Source: Macrostomum lignano (taxonomy: Eukaryota). From it: a DNA stretch of 56,970 bases. The stretch lies in the NCBI GenBank assembly GCA_002269645.1, contig NIVC01002328.1, positions 1-56,970 of the forward strand, written 5' to 3'. The notes under the pieces are model-generated. The model did no database searches, had not been told where the DNA came from, and saw nothing but the letters and a program-made list of their open reading frames with translations. The position numbers were made by a program, and so were the translations under genes. Positions 10,010 through 27,110 of this stretch are shown here, piece after piece; position 1 is the stretch's first letter, and each line of letters opens with the position of its first letter.

Positions 10010-12058
10010 TTATATTTGAGTAGGAGGTTTTTCCAAATAAGCAGTAGAGGGAAAAACATAACCAAACGACGTACTACCACATACAACTGCACCACGAATA
10101 AAATGTGCAGCATCCGCTCCACCAGTTCGAGCGCCAAAACCCATAAGGGTTCCAGATTTATCTAAAGTTCCCCAAGTTCCACTATCATATGTGAAAACGT
10201 TCTGTCCAATGAGGGTAAAAGAATCACCAGCAACATTGTATGACTGTAATCGGTACCAAACCCTTTGATTTAAAATATTAACTTCAAATAAATGCCAATC
10301 GCCGTTATCAATATTAGCATAGGCTACAGTTTGATCCGCATCACTACTAACATCGTTACGAACCGTAGATCCGTCTGATTTTTTATTACTCCAAACAACT
10401 CCAAACCTATCAGTCCACTCACTAGCAAACACTATCAGCCCGGCGTCGGTTGATAATCCAGTTCCAAATTCCGATGTTGGACGTTGGTGACAGTATGCAT
10501 AAAACCAAACCGCATCTGCACCATCTCCTGTAGCATTAGCAACTCGGAAAAAGAAAGACGCAGATATATTTTGAAAATGTGTGAAATTGAATTGTAAAGC
10601 ACCACTTACTCCAGAAGTTTCACGAGTAATTCTAGCGCCGTTTTGATAATCGATATAAGAAGCATCGCTAATTAAAGAACCGACTGGATATATATCTCCG
10701 GCGGTTGTTGGATTTTGATATCCAGACCAATTGCAAATTACTGGTTCGAACAAGGCCGCATCAATAGCAGGTATTCCATCCAATTTATTTTTATCGCTTC
10801 CAGACATTCTACCATTTGATGTTGGAGTAGCTAGCTGATCTACGTACGCTCGCGGAACTGCAGAAAGTATTTGAGTTGGCCAATTAAGATCTTGAATTTC
10901 AACACGGTGTTCAAATAATTGTATTTGACGAACCTCGATAGGTTGTGTACCGGTACCACCAGTTGGGAAGAATACGCTATAATATTTCCAAAAATTAGTC
11001 GTTAAATTAGATAGAGCAAATGATGTTGCTTGAACTGGTGATCCCGACGTAGTTAATGTCGTCCATGAATCGGTAGCAACATTTTTTGCGCGAACCGACC
11101 ACCCCGAGGGTATCTCAATTGTTTCACTGCCTGTAATTCTTAATTCAAATATTCTTCTATTATAACCTAAAAATTCAAATTGAATTTCCATATTGGTTGT
11201 GGTTCCGGTATTTGGTGACCATTGCGTCGCAAGGCTTCCATCTCCAACTCGAAAAGCTGTGTTGCCATTTTCAGATGCTGTAAGAACAACATCAGGATTT
11301 GAAGTATTTGATGTAAGCGGCGTGGTAAAAATATCGGCGTCAGTTGCATTAGCTCGCTCGTTTACTTGGCCTAGAGTTACCGAGTCTGCATTCTCTGTTC
11401 CAAATAATAAATTTGTTAATTTAAAATTATTCATATTAATATTACCACTACGAGTGGCAACTTGATTATCGACATAGTTCTTATCAACCACTGAATCACT
11501 AGTTGTAATTGAAACATTTATAATTCGGTTGTTGCTCATATCTAGGTTTCCGGTTGCGGTGGTTTGAACATAACGTGAATCAGAATCAGTTCGAGAATAA
11601 GAATCAGTTACATCTCTTTTTAAATTTAATCCATTATCAACTTCGGTTTTGGTATAAGAATCGGCTACGTTCCGTTTCAAATTTAATGAATTATCAACTT
11701 CGGTTTTGGTATAAGAATCGGCTACGTTCCGTTTCAAATTTAATGAATTATCAACCTCTGTTTTGGTATAGGAATCGGCTGTATTGCGTTTCAGATTTAG
11801 TGAATTATCAACTTCGGTTTTGGTATAGGAATCGGCTACGTTCCGTTTCAGATTTAGTGAATCATCGATTTGAGTTTTGGTATAGGAATCTGCAACGTTT
11901 CTTTTTAAATTTAATTTATTATCAATATCAGTTTTTTTATAACCTTCATCCTCATTAATATATCGATTATCTCCGAATGTAACACTGATGCCACCAGATG
12001 TGCCACCGCCACCACTACTTGTTGTTCCGTTCCATGAGGGTGTTCCAGAAAATAACAT
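10010..12058 (-). CDS. Fibre/spike receptor-binding protein (682 aa)
   Basis: Six 19-aa YTKTEVDNSLNLKRNVADS repeats; LDMSNNRIINV..KNYVD shaft motifs; discoidin-like domain; ATPTSNGRMSGSDKNKLDGI; C-terminal L-lectin/ConA-like domain. Confidence 0.75.
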   Translation of the reverse strand: MLFSGTPSWNGTTSSGGGGTSGGISVTFGDNRYINEDEGYKKTDIDNKLNLKRNVADSYTKTQIDDSLNLKRNVADSYTKTEVDNSLNLKRNTADSYTKTEVDNSLNLKRNVADSYTKTEVDNSLNLKRNVADSYTKTEVDNGLNLKRDVTDSYSRTDSDSRYVQTTATGNLDMSNNRIINVSITTSDSVVDKNYVDNQVATRSGNINMNNFKLTNLLFGTENADSVTLGQVNERANATDADIFTTPLTSNTSNPDVVLTASENGNTAFRVGDGSLATQWSPNTGTTTNMEIQFEFLGYNRRIFELRITGSETIEIPSGWSVRAKNVATDSWTTLTTSGSPVQATSFALSNLTTNFWKYYSVFFPTGGTGTQPIEVRQIQLFEHRVEIQDLNWPTQILSAVPRAYVDQLATPTSNGRMSGSDKNKLDGIPAIDAALFEPVICNWSGYQNPTTAGDIYPVGSLISDASYIDYQNGARITRETSGVSGALQFNFTHFQNISASFFFRVANATGDGADAVWFYAYCHQRPTSEFGTGLSTDAGLIVFASEWTDRFGVVWSNKKSDGSTVRNDVSSDADQTVAYANIDNGDWHLFEVNILNQRVWYRLQSYNVAGDSFTLIGQNVFTYDSGTWGTLDKSGTLMGFGARTGGADAAHFIRGAVVCGSTSFGYVFPSTAYLEKPPTQI

Positions 12059-12068
12059 TTTTTACTGT

Positions 12069-12686
12069 CTATTTTATAGAATCTAAAATACCCCTAAAGT
12101 CTTCGGGTCTTTCCTTCGAGTTATTAATTTTATATAAAAAATACAACGCCGCTTGCCCGCAATAACTTTTGTCAAAGGTTTGAAATTGTTCGTGATAATC
12201 TCCACATAAACGATTTTTAGTATGATTAAATTTATCTTTTATTTCCTGTAACGGAGGAAGCGCGTATGAATCAAAAAAATAAACAAGTTTTGGTTTTGAA
12301 TAAACTGCTGACCAATGAACACCGTTTTCTTTTGTTGTTTCAATATTAACAATGAAAGATCCATATCTTGGTAAGTCTTTTATCTCATCCCGCATAACAC
12401 ATCTAAATGGTTTTATTTTTAACTGCCGCGCCCAATTTGTTAATTCGATATTGCTTGTTGTGTCTGTTCCATATCGTTGTTTGAATATATGCCAATTCAT
12501 GGTCATTTTATGTTCCTGAAAAACTTTGGTTTTAGTTAGTTTAGTAGGTGTGGGTTTTAACAATTCCTTTCTTATTTTATCAGCTTGTAACTGCCTTAAT
12601 TTTGCTAGTTCTAGTTCGTAATTATCTTCAGCTTTTTTAACTTTTTCTGATTGTTTTTTTAGTAAATTATTATTATTATTACCCAT
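12069..12686 (-). CDS. Adenain-like cysteine maturation protease
   Basis: NGVHWSA (His), YFFDSYA (Asp), QTFDKSYCG (Gln/Cys). Confidence 0.92.
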   Translation of the reverse strand: MGNNNNNLLKKQSEKVKKAEDNYELELAKLRQLQADKIRKELLKPTPTKLTKTKVFQEHKMTMNWHIFKQRYGTDTTSNIELTNWARQLKIKPFRCVMRDEIKDLPRYGSFIVNIETTKENGVHWSAVYSKPKLVYFFDSYALPPLQEIKDKFNHTKNRLCGDYHEQFQTFDKSYCGQAALYFLYKINNSKERPEDFRGILDSIK

Positions 12687-12699
12687 TTTTACTATAGGA

Positions 12700-13485
12700 T
12701 TAAACCTGTTTTATACGTAAAATTACTGTTATTGATTGCCCACCAAAACTTATTAATCTATCGCTTTCATCTACAATCCTAATATAAATTGATTGAATAG
12801 TATATTGATTTAAAGGATAATATATTGGGGTTTGGGGTGCAACAATCATTTTCTCTCCAATTGGAACAGCAAGAAACGGGATTGAATAAATAATTCCACG
12901 TTGAACCAAAACCCCATTATCATCTGTTATATAACCGCCGTTTGATATGTCGGTTGTTATATTAATTGTATTAACACCGCCCTCAATGTTTCCCACGGTA
13001 TCACCGGTGCTTGATGCGGTAACTATTCGGGAATTAAATCCAAGTATTGTTCTGAGTGAATTTGCAATTGTAAAATCAACCTGATATCCGGTTCCTAGTG
13101 ATAGGGTGAATCGGCCAGAAGGTAAATCAACGCCAATAACAATCGCGCCCGCTACCCAATCACCATTAGTTGTTAATTCTCCTTCTATATAAGCATTCAA
13201 ATCGGTATAACTATAAGCTCCCGGATTAACGCTAAACGTTGTCCAATTGGCTCCGGAATCTTTAGAATATCTAAATTGATTATTTGTTGCATTAATTAAT
13301 TGAGGCATGTTAAAAACTGAAAACATTATTAAACCAATTTGATAACTTAGGCTTTGATTGAGTTGTAACGGATCGCGCAATATAATCCTTTGTTCGCTGG
13401 TTGTCATTATAAACTGTAGGGTTGTACTAAACTTTGAATTAGTTCGATCTACCAATTGTTTTATAGCGTCTAAATTTGCTGCCAT
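12700..13485 (-). CDS. Minor capsid protein (penton, single jelly roll)
   Basis: Start at TATAAAAATG 13485; N.T..NN.F.YS, PGAYS..DLN, IY.L....I.SI.IRIVDE..R.I.F pattern; position between ATPase and protease. Confidence 0.85.
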   Translation of the reverse strand: MAANLDAIKQLVDRTNSKFSTTLQFIMTTSEQRIILRDPLQLNQSLSYQIGLIMFSVFNMPQLINATNNQFRYSKDSGANWTTFSVNPGAYSYTDLNAYIEGELTTNGDWVAGAIVIGVDLPSGRFTLSLGTGYQVDFTIANSLRTILGFNSRIVTASSTGDTVGNIEGGVNTINITTDISNGGYITDDNGVLVQRGIIYSIPFLAVPIGEKMIVAPQTPIYYPLNQYTIQSIYIRIVDESDRLISFGGQSITVILRIKQV

Positions 13486-13550
13486 TTTTATAGTGGGGAA
13501 TAATAGCATCGGACTTCGTCCGCGAACCATAGGTTCGATCGGCACGCAGA

Positions 13551-14348
13551 CTACGTCTGATCCTCGTCCTCATTATCTTCTTTTATCAAATTTGTTAAGA
13601 TTCGATTTTTTCTTTCTAACCTAGGGTTGATATATATGTGTTTGTATTGACTATCATCCCAAATTTTTTTACACATACTTTTAAATGGTTTTGTATCCAA
13701 CCCAGGATTAAATCTCGCGTGTATATTTTGTAGATCATAGTTATCTAAATCAAACATTACACAACAGCTAGCATTCTTTTTTATAATCGATTCTAATTCT
13801 CTAAAGGATTGAGTAAGATAAAAAGCTCCAATTCCATCTCCTCTACCACTAACAAAAATTTCCTTTTGCAATTCTTGATCTCCATCATTAATACAATCAT
13901 CAAATATAATTAGTGTTTTATCATTTTTTGGGATTTTGTCGTAAGTTAATCGGTTTGATATTGTAATTGTTGGGGGGTTATTGTCCATATTTTCTGGATC
14001 GAACCTTTGGTTCGCGGACTCCGTCCGACCTTCTGCCATTTTTTTACATAAATCCTCAATGTCATTTAGGTTAAATCGCGGGTCATCATCGTCCTCATAT
14101 TGCTCATATGCTCTTAACATTCTAAACAAGATTTCTTTTTTTAATTTGTTTTTTAATCCATGTTTAAGAAATTCATAATATTTTATTCTAGGTTTATTAG
14201 TATAAATTATTAAATTATTATAGTCTAACATTCCATCGGTTGTTAGCAGATCATAAACAAAGTGGGTTTTTCCTTTGCCAGATCCGCCAATTACTAAACA
14301 AAGAAAAGGATCGTTTGGAAATATTTTATTATGTTTTGCTTTTACCAT
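13551..14348 (-). CDS. A32/FtsK-HerA genome packaging ATPase
   Basis: Walker A GGSGKGKT, Walker B LIIFDD, SGRGDGI..FYLTQS. Confidence 0.93.
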   Translation of the reverse strand: MVKAKHNKIFPNDPFLCLVIGGSGKGKTHFVYDLLTTDGMLDYNNLIIYTNKPRIKYYEFLKHGLKNKLKKEILFRMLRAYEQYEDDDDPRFNLNDIEDLCKKMAEGRTESANQRFDPENMDNNPPTITISNRLTYDKIPKNDKTLIIFDDCINDGDQELQKEIFVSGRGDGIGAFYLTQSFRELESIIKKNASCCVMFDLDNYDLQNIHARFNPGLDTKPFKSMCKKIWDDSQYKHIYINPRLERKNRILTNLIKEDNEDEDQT

Positions 14349-14367
14349 TTTTAAATATAAAATTTAA

Positions 14368-15831
14368 CTATTTTTTATCTACTGGTACCTTATTAGCAAC
14401 GGTACCATCTGCTAGAGCATATGCCATATATTCCTCTAGAAGCAATACGTGGGCGTCTAGTGCCTGATTGCCGGTTTTATTAATCTCTAACATATAATTC
14501 AAACCAAGGTTGGCTACATTTTCTTTCTGTGCGGTTAGATCAAAAACAACCACTGGATGAATGTTTAGAAACTCCGTGGGTGTGTACTGAGGAACAGCAT
14601 ACGCTTCATTTTTGACATAATCCTGATAATATTTTATAAAATCATTAACATCATTATTTGCTGTATTTAGATTTAGTACGGTTTTAACTGGATAATATTG
14701 ATCATCAACCTGCAGGCGGATATTCTGAACATTAAACTCGTTAATAGCTGTAACCTCGTTGTCTGTTGCGGTGGCTGCCTGAGCTGCAACGGCTCCTGAT
14801 TGAAGCCAATATAAATCTCCATTTGATCTTTTACTGTTTCTATTTGTTATTTTAAACCATACAAAAATATATCTAGCACGACGTTCTGAAGTAGTTAGCT
14901 GCCACTGGAAATAATCCTGGTTATTATTAATTGTTCGCATAAAGTGCCGCCGATTCAAATAAAAGATTTCCTGATCGCGCATTATCTGCTTATTTATGTA
15001 TTCTAATAGCGGTGCCGTTACCTCGAATTTTGGGACGACTAATTGAATTGATGCTATACGAATTGCGATATCGGTTGAAATCCTAGGCTGATATCCACCA
15101 GATATTTGCAACTGAATACCAAATTTTAATCCTTTCCATACCCGATTTGGTGAGAAGAACCCAAAGAGCGGAAAGATTGAAAAGTCTTGCTCATATGCCG
15201 TTGCCGTGGTTAATACCGCGACTGGGAATTTATTCTGACGATCTATAAAACCAGTGTTAATATCTTTTGTGTTAGTCATTGCAGTTACAACTGGAACGAT
15301 ATTGGTATTAAGATAAGCTATAAGAGCTGCGGTATCTGCGCCGGCTGCATTTTGTACATTAGGGAAAACTACTGCTTGTCCATTGCCCTTATCCGGCATC
15401 CAACCAACATTATCACCAACCTGTTTTGATAAATAAGTATAATTTAAATGTTTCAAAACTCCATTAATCTCAGCTGGGTTTGTTGATGTCTCAACAACGG
15501 CTCCATTAACTGTTAGTTGAGCTTGGGAAAAACATTTATAAAACCAATCATTTTCTATAATAATTCCAGAACGGTCTGCGATATCACCGGCTACAAGAGC
15601 GGTTCCATCGTTTCTGGTATACAACCATCTAACACGGAAAAAGGCATTTTTAAGATCTAATATGCTGTCGGTTGCCCCAATGTCAAAAGCTACAGTTCCA
15701 GTAGTAAAATTGTTTGAGTTATCACTTGTTGGTAGGGTAGCATTTAAATCTCTTGCCCTGATCTCATTAATATACTGTCGATGCTTTTTAAAATGAAATT
15801 TGTCACTCCATATAGTTTTTGTTTCGGCCAT
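14368..15831 (-). CDS. Double jelly-roll major capsid protein (487 aa)
   Basis: FSQAQLTVNG..VE, RYIFVWF, RLQVDDQYYP, VVFDLT motifs; size and synteny typical of Polinton MCP. Confidence 0.85.
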   Translation of the reverse strand: MAETKTIWSDKFHFKKHRQYINEIRARDLNATLPTSDNSNNFTTGTVAFDIGATDSILDLKNAFFRVRWLYTRNDGTALVAGDIADRSGIIIENDWFYKCFSQAQLTVNGAVVETSTNPAEINGVLKHLNYTYLSKQVGDNVGWMPDKGNGQAVVFPNVQNAAGADTAALIAYLNTNIVPVVTAMTNTKDINTGFIDRQNKFPVAVLTTATAYEQDFSIFPLFGFFSPNRVWKGLKFGIQLQISGGYQPRISTDIAIRIASIQLVVPKFEVTAPLLEYINKQIMRDQEIFYLNRRHFMRTINNNQDYFQWQLTTSERRARYIFVWFKITNRNSKRSNGDLYWLQSGAVAAQAATATDNEVTAINEFNVQNIRLQVDDQYYPVKTVLNLNTANNDVNDFIKYYQDYVKNEAYAVPQYTPTEFLNIHPVVVFDLTAQKENVANLGLNYMLEINKTGNQALDAHVLLLEEYMAYALADGTVANKVPVDKK

Positions 15832-15865
15832 TTTTTTAAGTTAAAAAAGTTTTTTATATTAAAAA

Positions 15866-16537
15866 ATGAGTCAATTTATGGACGTTGATGGAGAATTAGC
15901 GATTTATAGAGAGAAGCAAAAATATTCTGATTTTGTTAGAAATTTACAAAAAAGAAAGTTAGGAATACAACTAGCTGGTGATAGATTTGCTGCCCCTTTT
16001 GTTAATCCTATTACGGGCAAACTTAGTGAACTAGAAAAAACAGATAAAGATCTTCTTGAAAAAATTGCCAAGAATACCGAGCCAAAAGAGGATGAAATTT
16101 TAGATGAGCCGCCTACTTATGATGTTGATCAAGCCCTATTGAGAGTTGCTGAGATTAGACGTGCAGAACGGGATGGGGTTGTTGAATATCCGAGAGCTGC
16201 ACCACAAAGTATTGCTGTGACAGATTTAGGTAATGATGACTACCGAATTGGTGGGGTTGATAAAAATCGGAATGATCTATATAGAGAACTGGGCGGAGCA
16301 TATAATATTATTATGAACCCGAGGGTAAAGTTTAACCCTGATTTATATACTAGAGATGAATTAGTAAGTGCTAAAATTTTTTACGATGAGTTAGGAGTAA
16401 GAGCTGCTAAAAATACCAGCTTGTATAAAAGGATTGTTGATTCTATAAATAACAAACCGGCGGTTGGTGAAGGATTTAAAACTCCGCGAAAACTTGTTTT
16501 AGCTGCCGCGAAAGCTGCTGGACATACAGGTGTTTAA
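15866..16537 (+). CDS. Conserved Polinton protein ending GEGF...AAGHTGV (223 aa)
   Basis: Intact ORF; orthologue at 22905-23604. Confidence 0.65.
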   Translation: MSQFMDVDGELAIYREKQKYSDFVRNLQKRKLGIQLAGDRFAAPFVNPITGKLSELEKTDKDLLEKIAKNTEPKEDEILDEPPTYDVDQALLRVAEIRRAERDGVVEYPRAAPQSIAVTDLGNDDYRIGGVDKNRNDLYRELGGAYNIIMNPRVKFNPDLYTRDELVSAKIFYDELGVRAAKNTSLYKRIVDSINNKPAVGEGFKTPRKLVLAAAKAAGHTGV

Positions 16538-16557
16538 TTAAATTTATTTTTTATAAA

Positions 16558-17130
16558 ATGAATGAAACAAAAGTTTGTACTAAGTGTAAACAAGAAAAAC
16601 CAATGACTAAAGAATTTTTTTGTTGGAGAAATGATTCAAAAAATTTTAGAAATGAATGTAGATTATGTCATAATACTTCATCAACTATTTGGATGAAAAA
16701 CAATAAAGATAAATGGAATAAATATTGAAAGAATAAATATCACACCGATGAAAATTACAAAACTATTAATTTAATTAGAAATAGAATAAAAAGGTCATTA
16801 TCAACCTTTAATGATAATGATTATATCTCATATCTTGGTTGCACAAAAGAATTCTTTTTTGATTGGCTAAATTTTACAAGAAATTATTATGTGTCAAAAG
16901 ATTATAATGGTGCTTTACATATTGATCATTTCATTCCCGCTTCATCGTTTATTTACAAGGACGAAGATCAGATGAAAAAGTCTGAACATTGGACAAATAA
17001 AAGATACTTAACTAGTGTAGATAATTGCTATAAAAAAGTTAAGCAACCAACCATCGAAGAATTTGCAAAACAATTGGTGCTATCGTGTATTTTTAAGGCT
17101 ATTAAAAATGAGCAATCAATTAGTATTTGA
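16558..17130 (+). CDS. HNH endonuclease with N-terminal Zn finger (190 codons; in-frame TGA at 16726-16728)
   Basis: Manual translation: MNETKVCTKC...CRLC...YLGC...LHIDHFIPAS...HWTNKRYL...DN..K. Confidence 0.8.
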
Positions 17131-18685
17131 AGGAGGATTTTTAGATGTTCAAAAAGGATTAACAAGCTTACCACCAATATTTACTACTGGGAGGTATACG
17201 GGTGAGCTACACCTGCCATCAATGAACTTCACAGGTTATCCCGTGGCCTGAGTGGTAGAAGCAAAGCTACTGCTAGTCACTATTAGTGGCGATGTCTCCA
17301 AATTGCGTGAAACCCGTCATACAGCTTCAAGTACCACTTCAATTGAGAAATCTTTTGAAGGAACAGAGGTAACTCCTCTTCCCAATGGTAAAAAGCTTGA
17401 AGACATGGTGGCAATGCGCAGCCAAGCTCCTAAGTATTTTAAATATAAGGAGAAGGTTCAGAGAGCAGACGGAGATGGGCGGTAATTATCGCCGCTTAAG
17501 GTGTGCTCCAGCCTCATTCGAAAGATTGGGGGTAAACTACCCGGCACTCGTTTGGATTTAAGATTAAATCCTGACAATACTCCAAAAGCTGATTCAATTC
17601 CAATAAATGGGATTGATTGGTTAGCATACTATCACGACTTAGCATATAGAGATGCTGACAAGAACCCTCCCGAAGAAGCGTTAAGATTAAAACATGAAGC
17701 CAATCAAAAAATGATTCAAGGATTAGATAACTTACAAGGCTTATCAGTAGGCCAGAGATTAACTAGGTGGATGGTTAAAAAGATTCTACAATCTAAAGTT
17801 AAATTTGGTTTAGGAATTAATTACAACCAACATGGTAATAATTGTGTCGAATGTTTGTTATTAAGTGGTAGTGGGCTAAGTTATAATAAGGCTAAGGTTC
17901 TTCATAAAGAATACCGAAAACCTAAATTTTATAGAAAAATCATGAACTTCAAAAAGAATGAAATTTGGTATGCTGATTTAATGTCGATGCCAAATGATAA
18001 AGGATATAAATATATTTTAACAATATTAGATGGTTTTACTCGCTACGCGTGGGCTGTTCCTTTAAAATCCAAAAAGGGAGAGGTGGTTGCTAGTGCTTTT
18101 AGAAGCATTGGAGAAAAAAGTGAAAGGTTGTGTGTTGACGAAGGAAAAGAATTTTACAATCCTCACATGTATAAATTGTATCATTTTGAAAAAGGACAAG
18201 AAAGGAAAAAGGACGCGAATGGGGAGTATATTAATAAAATTTATTCTATTTATGGAGAGAGTAAAAACGCATTAATAGAAAGATTTAATAGAACTTTAGG
18301 TAAGAAATTATGGTTTCAGTTTAGTCTTAATGGTAACCAAAAGTGGGTAAAAATATTACCAGACGTAGTGAAAGATTATAACAATTCATATCATTCAGCT
18401 ATAAAGATGACTCCTCAACAAGCTTATAACAATCCTGAAAATGTTAGGGTTACTTTTGGAGAATTTGAAAAAAAGAAAACTAAAGGTTTTAAAGTTGGTG
18501 ATTCTGTTTATATCTATAAATGGAAAGATAAGTTTGAAAAGGGAAGAAAAGGATATTGGAAAATAAGTGAGAAATTTACTATCAGTAAAGTTTTAAATAC
18601 AAATCCCACCACCTATATCATTGCTGATAAGGATGGTGACGAAATATTGGGTTCATTTTATGAAAACCAGCTAATGCCAGCTTAA
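17108..18685 (+). CDS. Parvoviral-type PLA2 fused to RVE integrase; exons 17108-17236 and 17540-18685 (424 aa spliced)
   Basis: Splicing restores NFTG|PGTRL...YYHDLAY; integrase WYADL / CVDEGKEF / IERFNRTL (DDE) and YNNSYHSAIKMTP. Confidence 0.9.
17237..17539 (+). ncRNA. Group IC1 self-splicing intron (303 nt)
   Basis: P AAUUGCGUGAAA, Q AAUGCGCAGC, R GUUCAGAGAGCAG, S AAGGUGUGCUCC; P7 GAGCA/UGCUC; P1 CAGGU/GCCUG with U-G wobble; P3 UGUCUCC/GGAGAUG; P5abc with GAAA loop and A-rich bulge; L9 GAAA. Confidence 0.92.
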
Positions 18686-18695
18686 GTTCAATCCG

Positions 18696-18920
18696 TTACT
18701 TAAGGCAACAAGGTAGTAAATTTTTTATAACAAACAAAAACAATATTATTACTATTATTGTTACTAATATTATTATTGACATTTGTTCAACAGTTATCAA
18801 ACTTAAATTATCATTAAGGTCATTAATTGGTACATTTCCGATATAGGAATAATTTACCTTCATTTTTTTATATATATTTTTAACAATAAATGTTGTTTCT
18901 GTTATAGAGTAATAGTTCAT
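18696..18920 (-). CDS. Small single-TM protein (74 aa)
   Basis: Hydrophobic C-terminal helix; orthologue at 26220-26438. Confidence 0.6.
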   Translation of the reverse strand: MNYYSITETTFIVKNIYKKMKVNYSYIGNVPINDLNDNLSLITVEQMSIIILVTIIVIILFLFVIKNLLPCCLK

Positions 18921-18923
18921 TTT

Positions 18924-19238
18924 TTACATAAAAATTTCAATTTCGCTCTCTGAATCACTAGTTTCATATGAGCTATTTGTTGAGTTTGAATCATCTGAAC
19001 GAACCTCCCAATCATCTGAATTTAAATAATCTCCAAGTTGAAATATTAACTCACCCTCTTGTTCTAGATCATACAACCCATCCAACTCTAACGGATAAAG
19101 TTTTAGTTCATGCTTATCGTCATATTTTAGATAAACTTCATCAATTATTCCATTCAAAATATGCTGTTTTATTATCTCTGAATTTTTAGCAACAGTCTCA
19201 AAAGTATCACTAATTGAAAAGGTGTAAACGCGGTTCAT
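18924..19238 (-). CDS. Small acidic hypothetical protein (104 aa)
   Basis: ATG at the inner edge of the TIR; near-identical orthologue at 26395-26709. Confidence 0.65.
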   Translation of the reverse strand: MNRVYTFSISDTFETVAKNSEIIKQHILNGIIDEVYLKYDDKHELKLYPLELDGLYDLEQEGELIFQLGDYLNSDDWEVRSDDSNSTNSSYETSDSESEIEIFM

Positions 19239-19600
19239 TTTTAGTAACAGAAAAAGACCCTACGCGCCTGCGGCGCGGCCTGGGGTTATAAAGTAGTAGT
19301 AGGTAAAAGTACGCTTCTAGATCAGACCTATTGAAAATGATGATTGAAGGGCTATTAATGGGGGGACGCGAGGGGATTGTTATTGATGATTTGGGAGTGT
19401 TATTGGTGATTTGGGAGAGTTAGTGGTGATTTGTGTTGTTTTGTGGTGTTGGGGGTGTTGGTGGGAGGTAGTGTGTTTAAGGGGGGTAAAGGGTGTTTAG
19501 ATGTGTTTTTTTAGTACCCCCTCGTGTCCCCCCACTAGCCCTTCAAATCAGCATGTTAAATAGGGGTTCTGGGGCTAGAAGCGTACTTTTACCTACTACT
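19237..19600 (-). repeat. Right terminal inverted repeat of Polinton copy 1
   Basis: Reverse complement of 2067-2430; ends CCTACTACT. Confidence 0.95.
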
Positions 19601-19820
19601 AGCATCCCAACTCAAAGTCATTTTAAGTTATTGAAAAACTTTTTGTTTTTGTTAGTTTATACGTTGATTGTTTTAACAACTCCTTTCTCGTTTTTTCTGC
19701 TTGAAGTTGTTTTAATTTTTTTAATTCAGTTTCATATATTTTTTGGCTTTTTGAACACTATCCGATTGTTTTTTATCTTAGCTTCGATGTTATTACCCAT
19801 TTTAACCTGACTAAACCGGA

Positions 19821-20598
19821 TTAAACTTGTTTTATTCGTAAAATTACTGTTATTGATTGTCCACCGAAACTTATCAACCTTGTTGGTTTCGTCTACAATT
19901 CTAATATAAATCGATTGAATATTATATTGATTTAAATGGGTTTGGGGTGCAACAATCATTTTCTCTCCAATTAGAACAGCCAGAAATGGAATTGAATATA
20001 TTATTCCACGCTGAACCAAAAATCCATTGTCATCTGTTATATAACCACCGTTTGAGATATCAGTTGTAATATTTATTGTATTAACTCAACCCTCAATGTT
20101 TCCTACGGTATCGCCCGTGTTTGATGGGGTAACAATTCGGGAATTAAATCCTAATATGGTTCTAAGTGAATTTGCAATTGTAAAATCAACTTGGTATCCA
20201 GATCCTAGTGATAGAGTGAATCTGCCGGATGGTAAATAAACTCCTGTAACAATTGCGCCTGCTACCGAATCACCATTAGCTATTAATTCTCCTTCTATAT
20301 ACGCATTCAAATCGGTATAACTATATGCCCCCGGATTAACACTAAATGTCGTCCAATTTGCTCCAGAATCTTTAGAATATCTAAATTGATTATTTCTCTC
20401 AATAATTAACTGTGGCATATTAAAAACCGAAAATAAAATTAATCCAACTTGATAACTTAGAGTTTGATCGAGTTGTAACGGATCACGCAATTGAATCTGT
20501 TGTTCGCTTGTTGTCATTATAAACTGTAAGGTTGTGCTAAATTTCTAACTTGTTCTATCAACCAATTGTTTTATGGTGGTTAAGTTGTTTGATGCCAT
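19821..20598 (-). pseudogene. Penton, copy 2
   Basis: Fragments 20086-20517 and 19732-20019 match 12700-13485. Confidence 0.88.
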
Positions 20599-20608
20599 TT
20601 TTATATTG

Positions 20609-21369
20609 TTAAAATTCCGCGTCCTCATCCTCATTCTCATGTAATATATATGTTAAAATTCTATTGTTGCGTTCCAATCTTGAATTAATATATATGTGTT
20701 TGTATTGACTATCATCCCAAATTTTTTACACATACTTTTAAATTGTTTTGTTTCCCTTCCGGGATTAAATCTCCTATGTATATTCTGCAAACCATAATCA
20801 TCTAAATAAAAAATTATACAACAACTTGCATTCTTTTTTATAATTGAATCTAATTCCCTAAATGATTGAGTAAGATAAAATGCCCCAATTCCATCTCCTC
20901 TACCGCTAATAAAAATTTCTTTTTGCAATTCTTGATCACCATCATTAATACAATCATCAAATATTATTAGGGTTTTTATCATGTTTTGGAATTCGATCAT
21001 AAATTATTTTTTTTTGAATTGCTGGTGATTTTTCGCAGATGTTATTTGGATCTAGTGCCATTCTTCTAACCAAATCCTCTATGTCATCAAGTGAGAATTT
21101 TGGATTATCATCATCCTCGTATTGCTCATATGCTCTTAACATTCCAAATAAAGTATCTTTTTTATTTTTTGTTTTAATCCATGTTTAAGAAGTTCATAAT
21201 ATTTAATTTGTGGTTTATTTGTGTACACTATTAAATTGTTATAATCTAACATTCCTTCGGTTGTTAATAGGTCATAAACAAAATGTGTTTTGCCTTTACC
21301 CGATCATCCAATTACTAGACAAAGAAAAGGATCGTTTGGAAATATTGGATTGTGTTTTGCTTTAACCAT
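20609..21369 (-). pseudogene. Packaging ATPase, copy 2
   Basis: LIIFDDCINDGDQELQKEIF fragment; frameshifted. Confidence 0.88.
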
Positions 21370-21417
21370 TTTTAAGGAAACATTTACAATGGTGCGATGG
21401 TCGGAGACCTGCACCGC

Positions 21418-22889
21418 CTACAGCGGGGCGTCCTGAATAACAGTTCCATCGGCTCGTGCAATTGATAGATATTCCTCGAGAAATAATACGTGTGCATCAA
21501 CCACCTGATTTCCTGTTTTATTAATCTCTAACATATAATTCAAACCAGTGTTGGAGCGATTCTCTTTTTGTGCGGTTAGATCAAACACAACAACTGGGTG
21601 AATGTTTAGGAACTAGGTGGGAGTATATTGGGGAGTAGCGTATGCCTCATTTTTAACATAATCCTGATAATATTTGATTAAATCATTAACGTCGTTGTTA
21701 AGAATGTTTAGATTAAGGGGGTCTTTAACCGGATAATATTGGTCATCAACTTGGAGCCGAATGTTGTTCATATTAAAAGCTGTAATTGCTGCGGCTCCAG
21801 TATCAGTTGCATCGGCTGCTATGGCGGCTTAGATTGAATCCAATATAAATCACTGTTGGCTCTTTTAGCATTTGTATTAGTAATTTTAAACCAAACAAAT
21901 GCATATCTCACACGGCGTTTTGATGTGAGAATCTGCCATTGGAATGAATCCTGATTGTTATTAATTGTTCGCATAAAGTGGCGGCGATTCAAATAAAATA
22001 TTTCCTGATCCTTCATTAGCTGCTCATTGATATAAGATAGAAGTGGGGCTGTTACATCAATTGTTGGAACAACTAGCTGGATTAAAGCTATTCGGACGGC
22101 TAAATCGGTTGATGCTGCGGCTCCAAAAAGTATTCTACCCTGATACCCACCAGATATTTGCAACTGCACACTAAACCTAAGTCCCTTCCAAACGCGATTT
22201 GGTGAGAATAAACCAAATAGTGGGAAAATTGAAAAGTCCTGCTCATATGCGGTTGCAGTTGTTAAAACAGCTTCTGGGAATTTATTTTGTCTGTCAATGA
22301 ATCCGGTATTAATATTTTTTATATTACTTATTTGATTAAGAACTCCTTTAATAGCATCTAAATCAGCACTAATTACAGATACTGTGGCGGCTGCTATGTC
22401 TCTATTTGGGGAAAGGTGGCTGTTTGTCCATTACCCTTATCCGGCATCCATCCAACATTATCACCAACTTGTTTTGTTAAATAGGTATAATTTAAATGTT
22501 TCAAAACTCCATTAATCTCTGCTGGATTTGTAGATGTCTCAACCTCAGCTCCATTAATTTTTAGTTGGGCTTGGGAAAAACATTTATAAAACCAATCATT
22601 CTCGATGACACAATGCCAGCACGATTCGGTATATCTGCTGCGACGAGTGCGGTGCCATCATTTCTAGTATATAACCATCTAACTCTGAAAAACGCATGTC
22701 TCATATCCAATATGGTGTTGGTTGCGCCAACATCAGAAGTAACAGTTCCATTAGTAAAGTTGTTTGTATTGTCACTTGTTGGATTGGTATAATTTAAATC
22801 TGTTGCCCTAACCTCATTAATATATTGGCGTCATGGCGTGGTTTTTTGAAGTGGAACCTATCACTCCATCTAGTTTTTGTTTCGGCCAT
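21418..22889 (-). pseudogene. Major capsid protein, copy 2
   Basis: QEIFYLNRRHFMRTINNNQD match; frameshifted. Confidence 0.88.
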
Positions 22890-22904
22890 TTTTATAAGTT
22901 AAAA

Positions 22905-23604
22905 ATGAGTCAATTTATGGATATTGGTGGAGAAATGGCTCTTTATAAAGCTAATAAAAATATTGGATTTTGTTAGAGATTAAAAAAAAGAAAGTTGGGT
23001 TTCGAAATAGCTGGTGAGAAATTTGCTGCTCCTTTTGTTAATCCAATTGTTGGGAAAATTGGTGATCTAACACAAACTTTTGGAACTTTTGAAAAACTTT
23101 TGGAAAAGATTGCTGAGAATACAACTCCAAAAGAGAATGATGGTGTTGATATAGAGGATGAGCCGCCTGTTTATGAGGTGGATCAAGCAATATTGCGAGT
23201 TGCAGAGATTAGGAGGCAAGAAGTGGGCGATCGGGAAGATTTTCCGAGCGGTTCCGCAAAGTATTTCTGTGACAGAATTGCCTAATGATAATTTTCAAAT
23301 TGGCAGGACTGTAAAAAACAGGAATGAACTATATCGGGATTTAGGTGGGGCATTTAATATTGTTACAAATCCTAGAGTAAAGTTTAATCCTGATTTATAT
23401 GACAAAGATGAATTAGTAAGCGCAAAAAAAATTTATGGTGAATTGGGAGAAAGAGCTGTTAAAAACACTAGTTTGTATAAACGTATTGTTAAATCAATAG
23501 AGGCGAAAAGATCCGTTGGATTTAAAACTCCGCGAAAACTTGTTTTGGCTGCTGCTAAAGCTGCTGGACACACTGGTATTAATTATTTTTTTTTAAATGG
23601 ATGA
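22905..23604 (+). pseudogene. Orthologue of 15866-16537
   Basis: FKTPRKLVLAAAKAAGHTG shared. Confidence 0.85.
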
Positions 23605-24683
23605 TACGATAAAGTCCTGTCTTTGTAAACCCATTGATTATAAAACTGGATGTGATAGAATATTGAATAAAATATTTCAAGATGAATTAATAATTGCAAA
23701 TCGTATTAAAACGATTCAGATGCATCTTGGATCTCTTTATGAAGGCTACCGGACATTTGCCCTCCGGCATTTGCCCTCCGGACATTTGCCCTCCGGCATT
23801 TCCCCTCCGGACATTTGCCCTCGAGGACATTTGCCCTCGGGGACATTTGCCCTCCGGACATTTGCCCTCCGGACATTTGCCCTCCGGACATTTCCCCTCT
23901 GGAAAAGTACAGGTAAGGCTGGGGATAGGGTAGGGCGCGGGTATATATTGCTTACTAGAAAAGGATGAGTTGTTGGCTGGAGAAGAACCTGATGGATGCA
24001 AGAGGCGGGAGGATGAGGTTGGTGCTGGAGGAACGACGGGTGGGTACAGGAGGAGGTGAGGTGAGTAATGTGCGAGGGGGTAAATTTGCAGAGGGCAAAT
24101 GTGCGGAGGGGAAATGTCCGGAGGGCAAATGTCCGGAGGGCAAATGTCCGGAGGGCAAATGTCCCCGAGGGCAAATGTCCCCGAGGGGAAATGTCCGGAG
24201 GGCAAATGTCCGGAGGGGAAATGTCCCGGAGGGCAAATGTCCGGAGGGCAAACGCCGCCGAGGGGAAGTGCCGGAGGGCAAGTGCCGGAGGGGAAGTGCC
24301 GGAGGGCAAATGTCCGGAAGCGCTTTATGAATTATTAGCTATTAAACATTTTGGTTTTGAAAAAGTAAAGAAAATTGATTTAGTACATAATGATCGTAAA
24401 GTTGCGTTAGAGTCGAAATCTTCTGATAATACCGATAGTTCTTCAAGCCGATTTAGAAATATTCAAAAGTTGTTGGAGTTTAAAAATATTAATCCTGAAT
24501 TTGATTTGTATTATTTTTGCATTAATAACACTAAAAACCCAATACAAAAAGAATTTGATAATGCTGTTACCTTTAACTGGGGAATTTGCTTTAATTTTTT
24601 TGTATGGTGATAAATATTTGGAAATTATTAAATTGATAGAAGATTGTTTTTTAAGCATTAAAAATGAACTAAATTGTGTATGA
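23597..24683 (+). pseudogene. PD-(D/E)xK restriction-like endonuclease (Eco47II-like), interrupted by a MITE and a frameshift near 24570
   Basis: After removing the MITE: IQMHLGSLYELLAIKHFGFEKVKKIDLVHNDRKVALESKSSDNTDSSSSRFRNIQKL...LTGEFALIFLYG; family assignment is from motif recall (ExKxxxNTxxSSS). Confidence 0.62.
23744..24322. mobile_element. Foldback/MULE-type MITE (579 bp) with 9-bp TSD
   Basis: TSD CTTTATGAA at 23735-23743 and 24323-24331; inverted arms made of 15-bp GGACATTTGCCCTCC tandem units. Confidence 0.9.
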
Positions 24684-26244
24684 AGGTGGATTGTTGGATA
24701 TTCAGAAAGGATTAACAAGCTTACCACCAATATTTACTTGTGGGAAATATACAAATGAATCGCATATTCCGGCTATTCGTTTGCAGGTTACTCGTGGCCT
24801 GAGTGGTAGAAGCAAAGCTACTGCTAGTCACTATTTGTGGCGACACCTTCAAATTGCGTGAAAGCCGTCATACAGCTTCAAGTACCACTTCAATTGAGAA
24901 ATCTTTTAAAGGAACAGAGGTAACTCTCTTCCCACTGGTAAAAAGCTTGAAGACAAGGTGGCAATGCGCAGCCAAGCTCCTAAGTTGATAATTCAGTATG
25001 GAGAAGGTTCAGAGAGCAGACGGAAGTGGATGGTAATTTAGCTACTTAAGGTGTGCTCCAGCCTCTATCGAAAGACAGAGCGTAAACTGCCGGGGACTCG
25101 GTTAGATTTGAGATTAAATCCTGATGACACACCAAAAGCTGATTCAATTCCCATCAACGGTATTGATTGGTTAGCATATTATCATGACTTAGCATACAGA
25201 AATGCCGACAAGAATTCTCCTGAGGAAGCATTAAGATTAAAGCATGAAGCTGATCGAAAGATGATTGAGGGATTAGATAATTTACAGGGATTATCGGTAA
25301 GCCAAAGATTAACTCAATGGGTGGTTAAAAAGATTCTGCAATCTAAAGTTAAATTTGGTTTAGGAATTAATTACAATCAACATGGAAATAATTGTGTTGA
25401 CTGTCTGTTATTACTCATCTGTGGATTAAGTTCTGATGAGGCAAAAACACTTCATAAAGAATACCGAAAACCGAAATTTTACCGAAAAATCATGAACTTC
25501 AAAAAGAATGAAATTTGGTATGCTAACTTAATGTCGATGCCGAATGACAGAGGATATAAGTATATTTTAACTATATTAGATGGTTTTACTCGATATGCGC
25601 GTGGGCTATTCCATTGAAATCCAAAAAAGGTGAAGTTGTTGCTGCTGCTTTTAGAAGTATTGGGGAGAAAAGCGAGCGTTTATGTGTTGATGAAGGAAAA
25701 GAATTTTACAATCCTCATATGTATAAATTATATCATTTTGAGAAAGGAAAAGAAAGGAAAAAGGACGCAAGCGGTGAGTATATCAATAAGATTTATTCTA
25801 TTTATGGCGAAAGCAAAAACGCGTTAATAGAGAGATTTAATAGAACTTTGGGGAAGAAATTGTGGTTTCAGTTCAGTCTTAACGGTAACCAAATGTGGGT
25901 AAAAAATATTACCAGATGTAGTAAAAGATTATAATAATTCATATCATTCGGCGATAAATATGACTCCACAACAAGCTTATAACAATCCTGAAAATGTTAA
26001 AGTTACTTTTAGGGAAGTTGAAAAAAATAAAAAGAAATTTTTTAAAGTTGGTGATCAAGTATATATTTATAAATGGAAAGATAAATTTGAAAAAGGTCGA
26101 AAAGGCAACTGGAAGATTAGTGAGAAATTCATTGTAAGTAAAGTTTTAAATACAAATCCTACAACTTATATCATTGCCGATAAAGATGGTCAAGAAATAT
26201 TAGGATCATTTTATGAGAATCAATTACTTAAGGCAACAAGGTAA
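24664..26244 (+). pseudogene. PLA2-integrase, copy 2 (intron-containing, degraded)
   Basis: Matches 17108-18685; premature TAA at codon 3 and several frameshifts. Confidence 0.88.
24789..25089 (+). ncRNA. Group IC1 intron, copy 2 (301 nt)
   Basis: Same insertion site (GCA GGT|CCG GGG); P/Q/R/S conserved; 11-nt receptor CCUAAG...UAUGG; terminal omega-G at 25089. Confidence 0.92.
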
Positions 26245-26709
26245 TAAATTTTTATAACAAACAAAAACAATATTATTACTATTATTGTTACTAAAATAAT
26301 TATTGACATTTGTTCAACTGTTATCAAGCTTACATTTTCATTAAGTTCATTAACTGTTACATTACCAATGTAGGAATAATTTAACTTCATTTTTTTACAT
26401 AAAAATTTCACTTCGATTGTCTGAATCACTAGTTTCATATGAACTATTTGTTGACTCAGAATCGATTGATCGCATCTCCCAATCGTCTGAATTTAAATAA
26501 TCTTCAAGTTGAAATATTAACTCACACTCTTGTTCAAAATCGTATAAACCATCCAACTCTAGCGGATAAAGTTTTAGTTCCTGCCCATCGTCGTATTTTA
26601 AATAAACTTCATCTATTATTCCATTCAATATATGCTGTTTTATTATCTCTGAATTCTTAGCAACAGTTTCAAAAGTATCGCTTACAGAAAAGGTGTAAAC
26701 TCGGTTCAT
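26220..26709 (-). CDS. Copy 2 orthologues of the small TM and acidic terminal genes
   Basis: ORFs 26220-26438 and 26395-26709 match 18696-19238. Confidence 0.7.
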
Positions 26710-27110
26710 TTTTTGTAACAGAAAAAAGCCTTTTGTGCCCCAAGCGCCTGCGGCGCGGGCGGGGGTTAGAAAGAGTTGTGGGTGTTGGAAGTGTTGGAAG
26801 AGTTAGTAAGTGTTGGTTGTGTAGTAGTAGGTAAAAGTACGCGTATAGGACTGTGCACCTATTAAACATACGATTTGAAGGTCTTGTGGGGGGTACTAGG
26901 GGGTTAGATTCAGATTGTGTTTTTGGTTTTTTTCGATTGTTGGGGATGATTGGAAATGTTTATTTGTGTTTATTGTTTTTTTTTCAATTGTTGGGGAGAT
27001 TAGATGTGTTTATTTGTGTTTTTTAAGTTTCCCCCTAGTACCTCCCACCAGACCTTCAAATCGTATGTTTAATAGGTGCTCTCAGGGATAGACTCGTACT
27101 TTTACCTACT
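26708..27110 (-). repeat. Right TIR of Polinton copy 2 (self-palindromic 26823-27110)
   Basis: AGTAGTAGGTAAAAGTACG ... GTACTTTTACCTACT with long inverted arms. Confidence 0.85.

Follow-up and report, generated by a model that had tools for sequence, protein, structure and literature searches.

An exchangeable nuclease slot beside a group I intron-bearing PLA2 gene, and loss of the GGNCC word, in Polintons of Macrostomum lignano

Why should a nuclease gene stand directly before an intron-bearing gene in an animal mobile element, and why should two copies of the element hold different nucleases in the same place? The question is raised by a contig of Macrostomum lignano, which we analysed over its whole stretch of 56,970 nt (the window). 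It contains one Polinton/Maverick (copy 1, approximately 2067-19601) and part of a second (copy 2). An initial annotation had proposed that the gene before PLA2 occupies a swappable slot, and that two different nucleases had been recruited there to mobilise or enforce an intron in PLA2 that has no ORF. We find that the slot is a nuclease locus, both optional and exchangeable, in a family of endogenous Polintons. The evidence for a partnership between nuclease and intron points to the PD-(D/E)xK nuclease of copy 2 and to a short, restriction-like site over a long homing site. The features concerned are listed in Table 1.

Table 1. Positions of the slot, the PLA2 gene and associated features in the window
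Feature	Positions	Strand	Remarks
Left terminal inverted repeat, copy 1	2067..2435	+	Inverted match of 375 nt, 91%
Right terminal inverted repeat, copy 1	19233..19601	-	Partner of left repeat
Upstream flanking gene, 223 aa	15866..16537	+	Homologue lies before the slot in 130 of the 137 loci classified
Slot gene, copy 1, Zn-finger HNH/endonuclease VII-like nuclease	16558..17130	+	Broken by one TGA, 16726-16728
PLA2 exon 1, copy 1	17108..17236	+	Last codon Gly (GGT)
ORF-less group I intron, copy 1, 303 nt	17237..17539	+	Splits Gly-Pro codons; last base A, not G
PLA2 exon 2, copy 1	17540..18685	+	In frame with rve integrase (E 2e-7); PF08398 match weak (E 0.027)
Slot gene, copy 2, Eco47II/EcoO109I-like PD-(D/E)xK nuclease	23597..24683	+	Broken by insertion and frameshift
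MITE-like inverted-repeat element, 579 nt	23744..24322	.	Inside copy-2 slot gene; 9-bp target duplication
PLA2 exon 1, copy 2, 125 nt, out of frame	24664..24788	+	ATG at 24664
Group I intron, copy 2	24789..25089	+	Same site as copy 1; last base G; RF00028 53.5 bits

Copy 1 carries terminal inverted repeats, an A32 ATPase and an rve integrase (Pfam scan of 23 frames), and a protein-primed polymerase B, the last lying in three ORF pieces and assigned by likeness to ORFs that pass PF03175. By their size and motifs, the frames at 14368-15831 and 12069-12686 are candidates for the major capsid protein and the protease, respectively; Pfam gave no match for either candidate. Pfam and NCBIfam scans found no family for the upstream flanking gene. 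Homology of copy 2 to copy 1 spans 19604-26783 and begins mid-element, abutting the right end of copy 1 (19601-19604); copy 1 has no 6-bp target-site duplication, its flanks being different and copy 2 adjoining its right end. Two other frames of copy 1 deserve mention: the polymerase frame at 5001-7007 contains an Endonuclease_7 domain (PF02945, E 5e-8, residues 119-170), and a 682-aa frame at 10010-12058 has 19-residue repeats near its N-terminus and is fibre-like.

The copy-1 slot frame runs for 190 codons with a single TGA (codon 57, read through as X), and its protein has an N-terminal CxxC...CxxC and a DH...N...N core. At the same place in copy 2 lies the unrelated PD-(D/E)xK gene (BLASTP between naturally open siblings of the two, E = 82). 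The insertion and frameshift that break the copy-2 gene had escaped the initial annotation. A sibling 99% like copy 2 (L023) is without the 579-nt insertion; in the window itself, both slot genes are dead copies. Both overlap the PLA2 start, as had been observed earlier, one ending in IKNEQSISI and a stop (overlap of 23 nt) and the other in IKNELNCV and a stop (overlap of 20 nt). The common IKNE is the PLA2 start region in another reading frame and not a sign of homology.

We gathered loci of this family (family 1) from the 764-Mb assembly by three genome searches (the best 40, 40, and 150 candidates scored) and four fetches; two of the searches were seeded by slot type, and all counts are lower bounds. 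After removal of three duplicates there are at least 139 loci, of which 137 were classified. HNH is the tenant of the slot in 100 of the 139 and PD-(D/E)xK (hereafter PD) in 37; neither a third tenant nor an empty slot was seen among them. By tenant and intron type (A or B, see below), the loci comprise 80 HNH with intron A, 17 HNH with intron B, three HNH without an intron, 30 PD with intron A, seven PD with intron B, and two that have no exon 1. A free-standing nuclease gene adjoins an intron-bearing gene in 137 of the 139, and the intron is nearly fixed (134 of the 137 classified loci gathered). Wnt genes in the assembly mark the host as an animal. Their matches come in pairs, and the assembly therefore seemingly includes haplotype duplicates; since the copies are related and some are probably such duplicates, the counts are not independent. 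Frames are open in 67 of 100 HNH genes (at least 180 aa) and 26 of 37 PD genes. Mean pairwise dN/dS is 0.56 for HNH (0.42 in its catalytic half; 45 sequences) and 0.26 for PD (15 sequences), so both tenants look like nucleases under purifying selection.

The tenants have changed places repeatedly. Slot type needs to change 20 times on the upstream-gene tree, 15 times on that of exon 2 and 15 times on the intron tree, compared with means of 29, 31, and 25 after shuffling; starred branches force eight, nine, and four of the changes. The upstream flank is identical in 25 HNH-PD pairs, no flank column separates HNH from PD loci, and no flank marker follows the slot type. From the label changes, the identical flanks and the missing column we conclude that the slot is exchanged by recombination, and census and flank trees thus bear out the swappable slot of the initial annotation. 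The slot and intron trees are mosaic, and the slot borders hold no intron remnants. The intronless HNH elements L112 and L113 have a different upstream gene, of 168 aa, with only the C-terminal end in common.

Is slot content tied to the intron? A survey across the family, as had been suggested, gave no sign of such a tie: Slot type shows no link to intron presence (P = 0.56, Fisher's test; three intronless loci, low power) or to intron type (P = 0.81). Intron-free alleles make up none of the 37 PD loci and three of the 100 HNH loci, which is not a significant difference (P = 0.56). All three intronless alleles among the 137 classified loci have HNH, two of them with an open frame, which lends no support to the proposed role of HNH as enforcer of the intron. 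What stands of the proposal that both nucleases were recruited for the intron is that both families sit in related group I introns elsewhere.

For HNH, an open sibling of the copy-1 gene matches phrog_1035 (E 5e-8). H125 and N148 are invariant among 48 sequences, and D124, N157, and four cysteines (C8, C11, C35, and C38) are conserved in ≥90%. The predicted model (pLDDT 94) has 41 matches among viral structures at E ≤ 0.001, many of them named HNH, and it matches an intron-encoded endonuclease of Bodo saltans virus (E 2.9e-8); its matches in the PDB are weak. The N-terminal helices vary among copies, which may reflect shifting specificity. At the protein level a relative (P0021, 37% identity) runs into the core of the same intron type (E 6e-15). 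An HNH-family domain ends 115-163 nt before the intron core motif in four of 80 viral loci (including L240, L278, and L310), and Rfam confirms the intron in three of those four; judged by a motif, the gene that hosts these introns is probably the giant-virus major capsid gene. In the giant-virus contigs L310 (6228-11909) and L278, as many as seven matches to group I introns fall within 16 kb, several of them near HNH-family ORFs.

The PD tenant (167 aa) has a predicted PD-(D/E)xK fold with a catalytic D/ExK. It resembles in this Eco47II (PF09553), EcoO109I, and AvaII, restriction enzymes with GGNCC-core sites (GGWCC for AvaII), although these are 225-272 aa long and the tenant falls below the Pfam cut-off: P0003 scores 20.6 bits against PF09553, whose gathering score is 25.9, and one of four PD homologues scanned passes (P0007, 30.2 bits). 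Identity is 13%-17%, specificity being read from family resemblance, and the top Foldseek match is DdmD, which is not a GGNCC cutter. We infer that the tenant is a small enzyme of restriction type, with GGNCC, or part of that set (for example, GGWCC), as its target. Unlike its bacterial counterparts, it is intron-borne or sits in a swappable slot, and no methyltransferase family was found in the element (23 frames scanned with Pfam and 11 with NCBIfam, several ORFs being without assignment). Since no methylase was found among the frames scanned, the tenant is not part of a standard restriction-modification system.

In five of nine PD homologues, the C-terminus continues into a translation of the core of this type of intron (best E between 1e-16 and 6e-8). 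In a second Polinton family of the same genome (family 2), an intron interrupts PLA2 at the same position and itself contains the PD gene, in all 22 distinct intron-plus loci (14 with an open frame); a further 22 loci are intronless. A metagenome contig (L196) has a PD gene inside a same-site intron in a third type of element. By homology, then, the two slot tenants stem from intron-associated nuclease families.

The intron matches RF00028 in copy 1 at 63.1 bits and also exceeds the gathering score (50) in copy 2, in L144, and in L196. Its borders in copy 1 are set by the natural intronless alleles L077, L112, and L113. Family-1 introns are ∼300-335 nt long and ORF-less, save one with a host insertion, while those of family 2 carry an ORF. 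Both families have PLA2 and the rve integrase joined in one frame (17108-18685; L143:3584-4942), so that the intron interrupts the integrase message too; in L143, a natural intronless family-2 allele, the two form a single continuous ORF. Among the 110 type-A loci gathered, exon 1 ends in GGT in 108, and T (U) precedes the 5′ splice site in all. The terminal base is A in 81, G in 28, and unclear in one, and the A endings are found with HNH and with PD; in family 2, the terminal base is G in all 22 introns. Group I introns usually end in G, and splicing of the A-ending introns may be impaired. A coral mitochondrial intron without a terminal G is nevertheless reported to ligate its exons in vivo (PMC6545197).

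A second intron type (B) follows the same GGT in 24 of the 137 loci gathered (L024-L028, L089-L097, and others). Over 158 nt of the 5′ half, type B is 79% like type A; Rfam gave no match to it, and Pro-Gly is not simply restored at the 3′ border. In the family-2 locus L145:2829-3704, PLA2 exon 1 and the intron start lie directly before a second, intronless PLA2 gene; the frame beside them is presumably a D5-like helicase.

The intron splits the Gly-Pro codons of the PLA2 G-P-G loop (GGT/CCN), and Gly-Pro codons always read GGNCC. Intronless family-1 junctions accordingly have GGTCC (L112 and L113) or GGCCC (L077). Copy 1 has no GGNCC in 16.8 kb, against 19.4 ± 4.6 expected from dinucleotide shuffles, 15.4 from codon shuffles of 18 frames (minimum of 4 in 1000), and 5.9 with the proteins held fixed (none of 500 as low). 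Neither the W form nor the S form occurs (expected, 10.4 and 5.0, respectively), and Gly-Pro is the sole absent dipeptide of 269 common ones (0 vs. 9.2). In 12 related family-1 elements (∼156 kb) there is one GGNCC against ∼79 expected, in an intronless HNH element, with the three intronless junctions, missed by the mask, coming on top; one of the intronless HNH elements has a GGTCC in addition to its junction. After GGNCC, depletion is strongest for CCNGG (0.48). HNH-slot elements are as depleted as PD-slot elements.

Family 2 has four GGNCC in ∼50 kb, two of which are the intronless junction. In 51 viral control loci the median ratio is 0.89, with one locus at zero. Eight stretches of other polymerase-B elements of the same genome, which are more GC-rich, have 56 against 102 (0.55), none at zero; against this 0.55 baseline, P is 2e-4 for the zero of copy 1 and 0.011 for family 2. 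The host flank has 51 GGNCC in 29.6 kb. A family-2 element with an open PD frame (C219) keeps a GGGCC, and the junction still reads GGCCC in 19 of the 22 alleles of this family that are intronless, which fits a preference for GGWCC and equally a weaker link. In three intronless family-2 alleles (L160-L162), Gly-Gln replaces Gly-Pro at the intron site, removing GGNCC. CCNGG is halved and CANTG reduced in family 1 (window 2430-19240), possibly the trace of another nuclease; CCNGG is not reduced in family 2.

These observations suggest a scheme in which the family would have purged GGNCC from its own DNA, down to avoiding Gly-Pro in its proteins. The last Gly-Pro, in the PLA2 loop, is split in the DNA by the intron and would be restored only in spliced RNA. 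Relatives without the intron would be cleaved by the PD enzyme at the intron site, which would drive the intron in the manner of collaborative homing, and the enzyme may also cut rival viruses or host DNA; GGNCC is abundant in the latter, so expression of the enzyme must be confined or destructive, and an enzyme that cuts so often ought to be toxic in the nucleus of an animal. That PD cuts GGNCC/GGWCC, that the family is immune by purging and intron masking, and that intronless relatives cut at the intron site are converted or excluded seems to us fairly probable. HNH would be the rival of PD, a free-standing nuclease of homing type that recognises a different and probably longer target, has no need of the intron and displaces PD through recombination between family members; that it has another target and competes for the slot is the more weakly founded part. 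The chances appear about even for the wider proposition that animal Polintons run a methylase-free form of restriction, with a bacterial-type GGNCC cutter made safe by loss of sites and of Gly-Pro, a self-splicing intron as immunity factor for the site that cannot be recoded, PD both intron-borne and free-standing in one genome, and HNH as a rival for the slot.

The initial annotation favoured classical collaborative homing by both tenants, which would recognise long sites spanning the intronless PLA2 junction and so mobilise the ORF-less intron. The layout does match that of F-CphI beside the psbA intron (PMC6083498), the near fixation of the intron in the loci gathered (134/137) agrees with it, and HNH relatives lie inside introns (P0021; L240, L278, L310; the Bodo saltans virus match). 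We nevertheless hold it unlikely, given that HNH is found in all three intronless alleles, twice as an open frame, that no flank marker travels with the slot, and that a long site would not account for the genome-wide loss of a 5-bp word.

That loss might instead be due to an outside enzyme, from a co-infecting giant virus or the restriction system of a symbiont, which selected for the loss of GGNCC and for the intron; PD would then have been captured from the same source and tolerated, since the sites had already gone. Eco47II-like clusters occur in Nucleocytoviricota, giant viruses are described as carrying restriction-modification systems (PMC7253447, PMC7019647), other elements of the genome are mildly depleted, and HNH elements are depleted equally to PD elements. 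The last point is, however, accounted for by frequent slot exchange, and both the location of PD inside the site-splitting intron itself, in family 2 and in L196, and its purifying selection in the slot (dN/dS 0.26) tell against an outside source, which we judge improbable. Finally, intron and nucleases might be independent parasites, each nuclease homing only into slot alleles that lack it (intronless homing), with the GGNCC gap as a compositional quirk. Slot type indeed shows no link to intron presence or type, slot borders are free of intron remnants, and introns favour conserved codons anyway. It would then be a coincidence that the sole absent word is at once the core site of the nearest families of PD and the site split by the intron, and that two further types of element carry PD within an intron at that site; this makes independence very unlikely. 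The reading that we prefer remains a PD enzyme to which the family is immune by site loss and intron.

Slot and intron would work by analogy with collaborative homing and with intron-nuclease interference between viruses, and we do not assign the locus to either. The former is exemplified by F-CphI and the psbA intron of cyanophage S-PM2 (PMC6083498, PMC3984707). The present case differs in that the element is an animal Polinton with two unrelated alternating tenants, that free-standing and intron-borne states of one nuclease occur in one genome, and that the inferred target is a 5-bp word purged genome-wide. As to interference, the intron nuclease of Bodo saltans virus is proposed (PMC5871332), and an intron-linked nuclease of phage PhiPA3 was reported to be shown (PMC11620839), to damage competing viruses; those nucleases are intron-encoded and hit a specific gene, whereas those of the window are free-standing and one is restriction-like. 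Chloroviruses and marseilleviruses are described as eukaryotic DNA viruses with short-site nucleases (PMC7019647, PMC7253447), and the restriction enzymes of chloroviruses are believed to break down the chromatin of the host (PMC7019647). In those systems self-protection is by methylation, whereas here it is apparently by site loss and the intron.

Adintoviruses, or Mavericks with PLA2X (PMC8502044), share with copy 1 the terminal inverted repeats, polymerase B, rve integrase, A32 ATPase, and PLA2, but here PLA2 is fused to the integrase; in the main text of that paper neither "endonuclease" nor "homing" occurs, and no intron of PLA2 is mentioned. Reports on PLVs describe ORF-less group I introns with free-standing HNH/GIY-YIG genes (HEGs) in cryptophytes and protists (PMC12220804), and PLA2 and HEG-linked helicases in Lepidoptera (PMC11296320). 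In the literature that our search covered (main texts, with few subscription journals), we saw no description of animal Polintons with an intron in PLA2, with a slot for nucleases, or with avoidance of GGNCC. According to a review of 2013, rDNA was at that time the only known location of group I introns in the nucleus (PMC3679873), and we found none in protein genes of animal nuclear genomes in the literature searched. If our reading is true, an element in the nuclear genome of an animal has a group I intron with a definite function under selection, namely to make its carrier immune to the carrier's own nuclease, and a restriction enzyme is on its way to becoming a gene that mobilises introns. 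The "free-standing" and the "intron-borne" stage of that pathway would be found side by side in one genome, which makes the model testable with natural alleles. Site purging and constant slot exchange would further imply that these Polintons multiply and recombine like viruses in competition, a point relevant to the question of an infectious phase in Mavericks.

A double-hairpin element of ∼30 nt is inserted at several places, 28 times in introns, 19 times at slot borders, and 11 times elsewhere (for example, window 13521; L008:2356, L037:542, L041:2829), and may explain the intron lengths of 303 and 333 nt and the slot lengths of 575, 605, and 635 nt.
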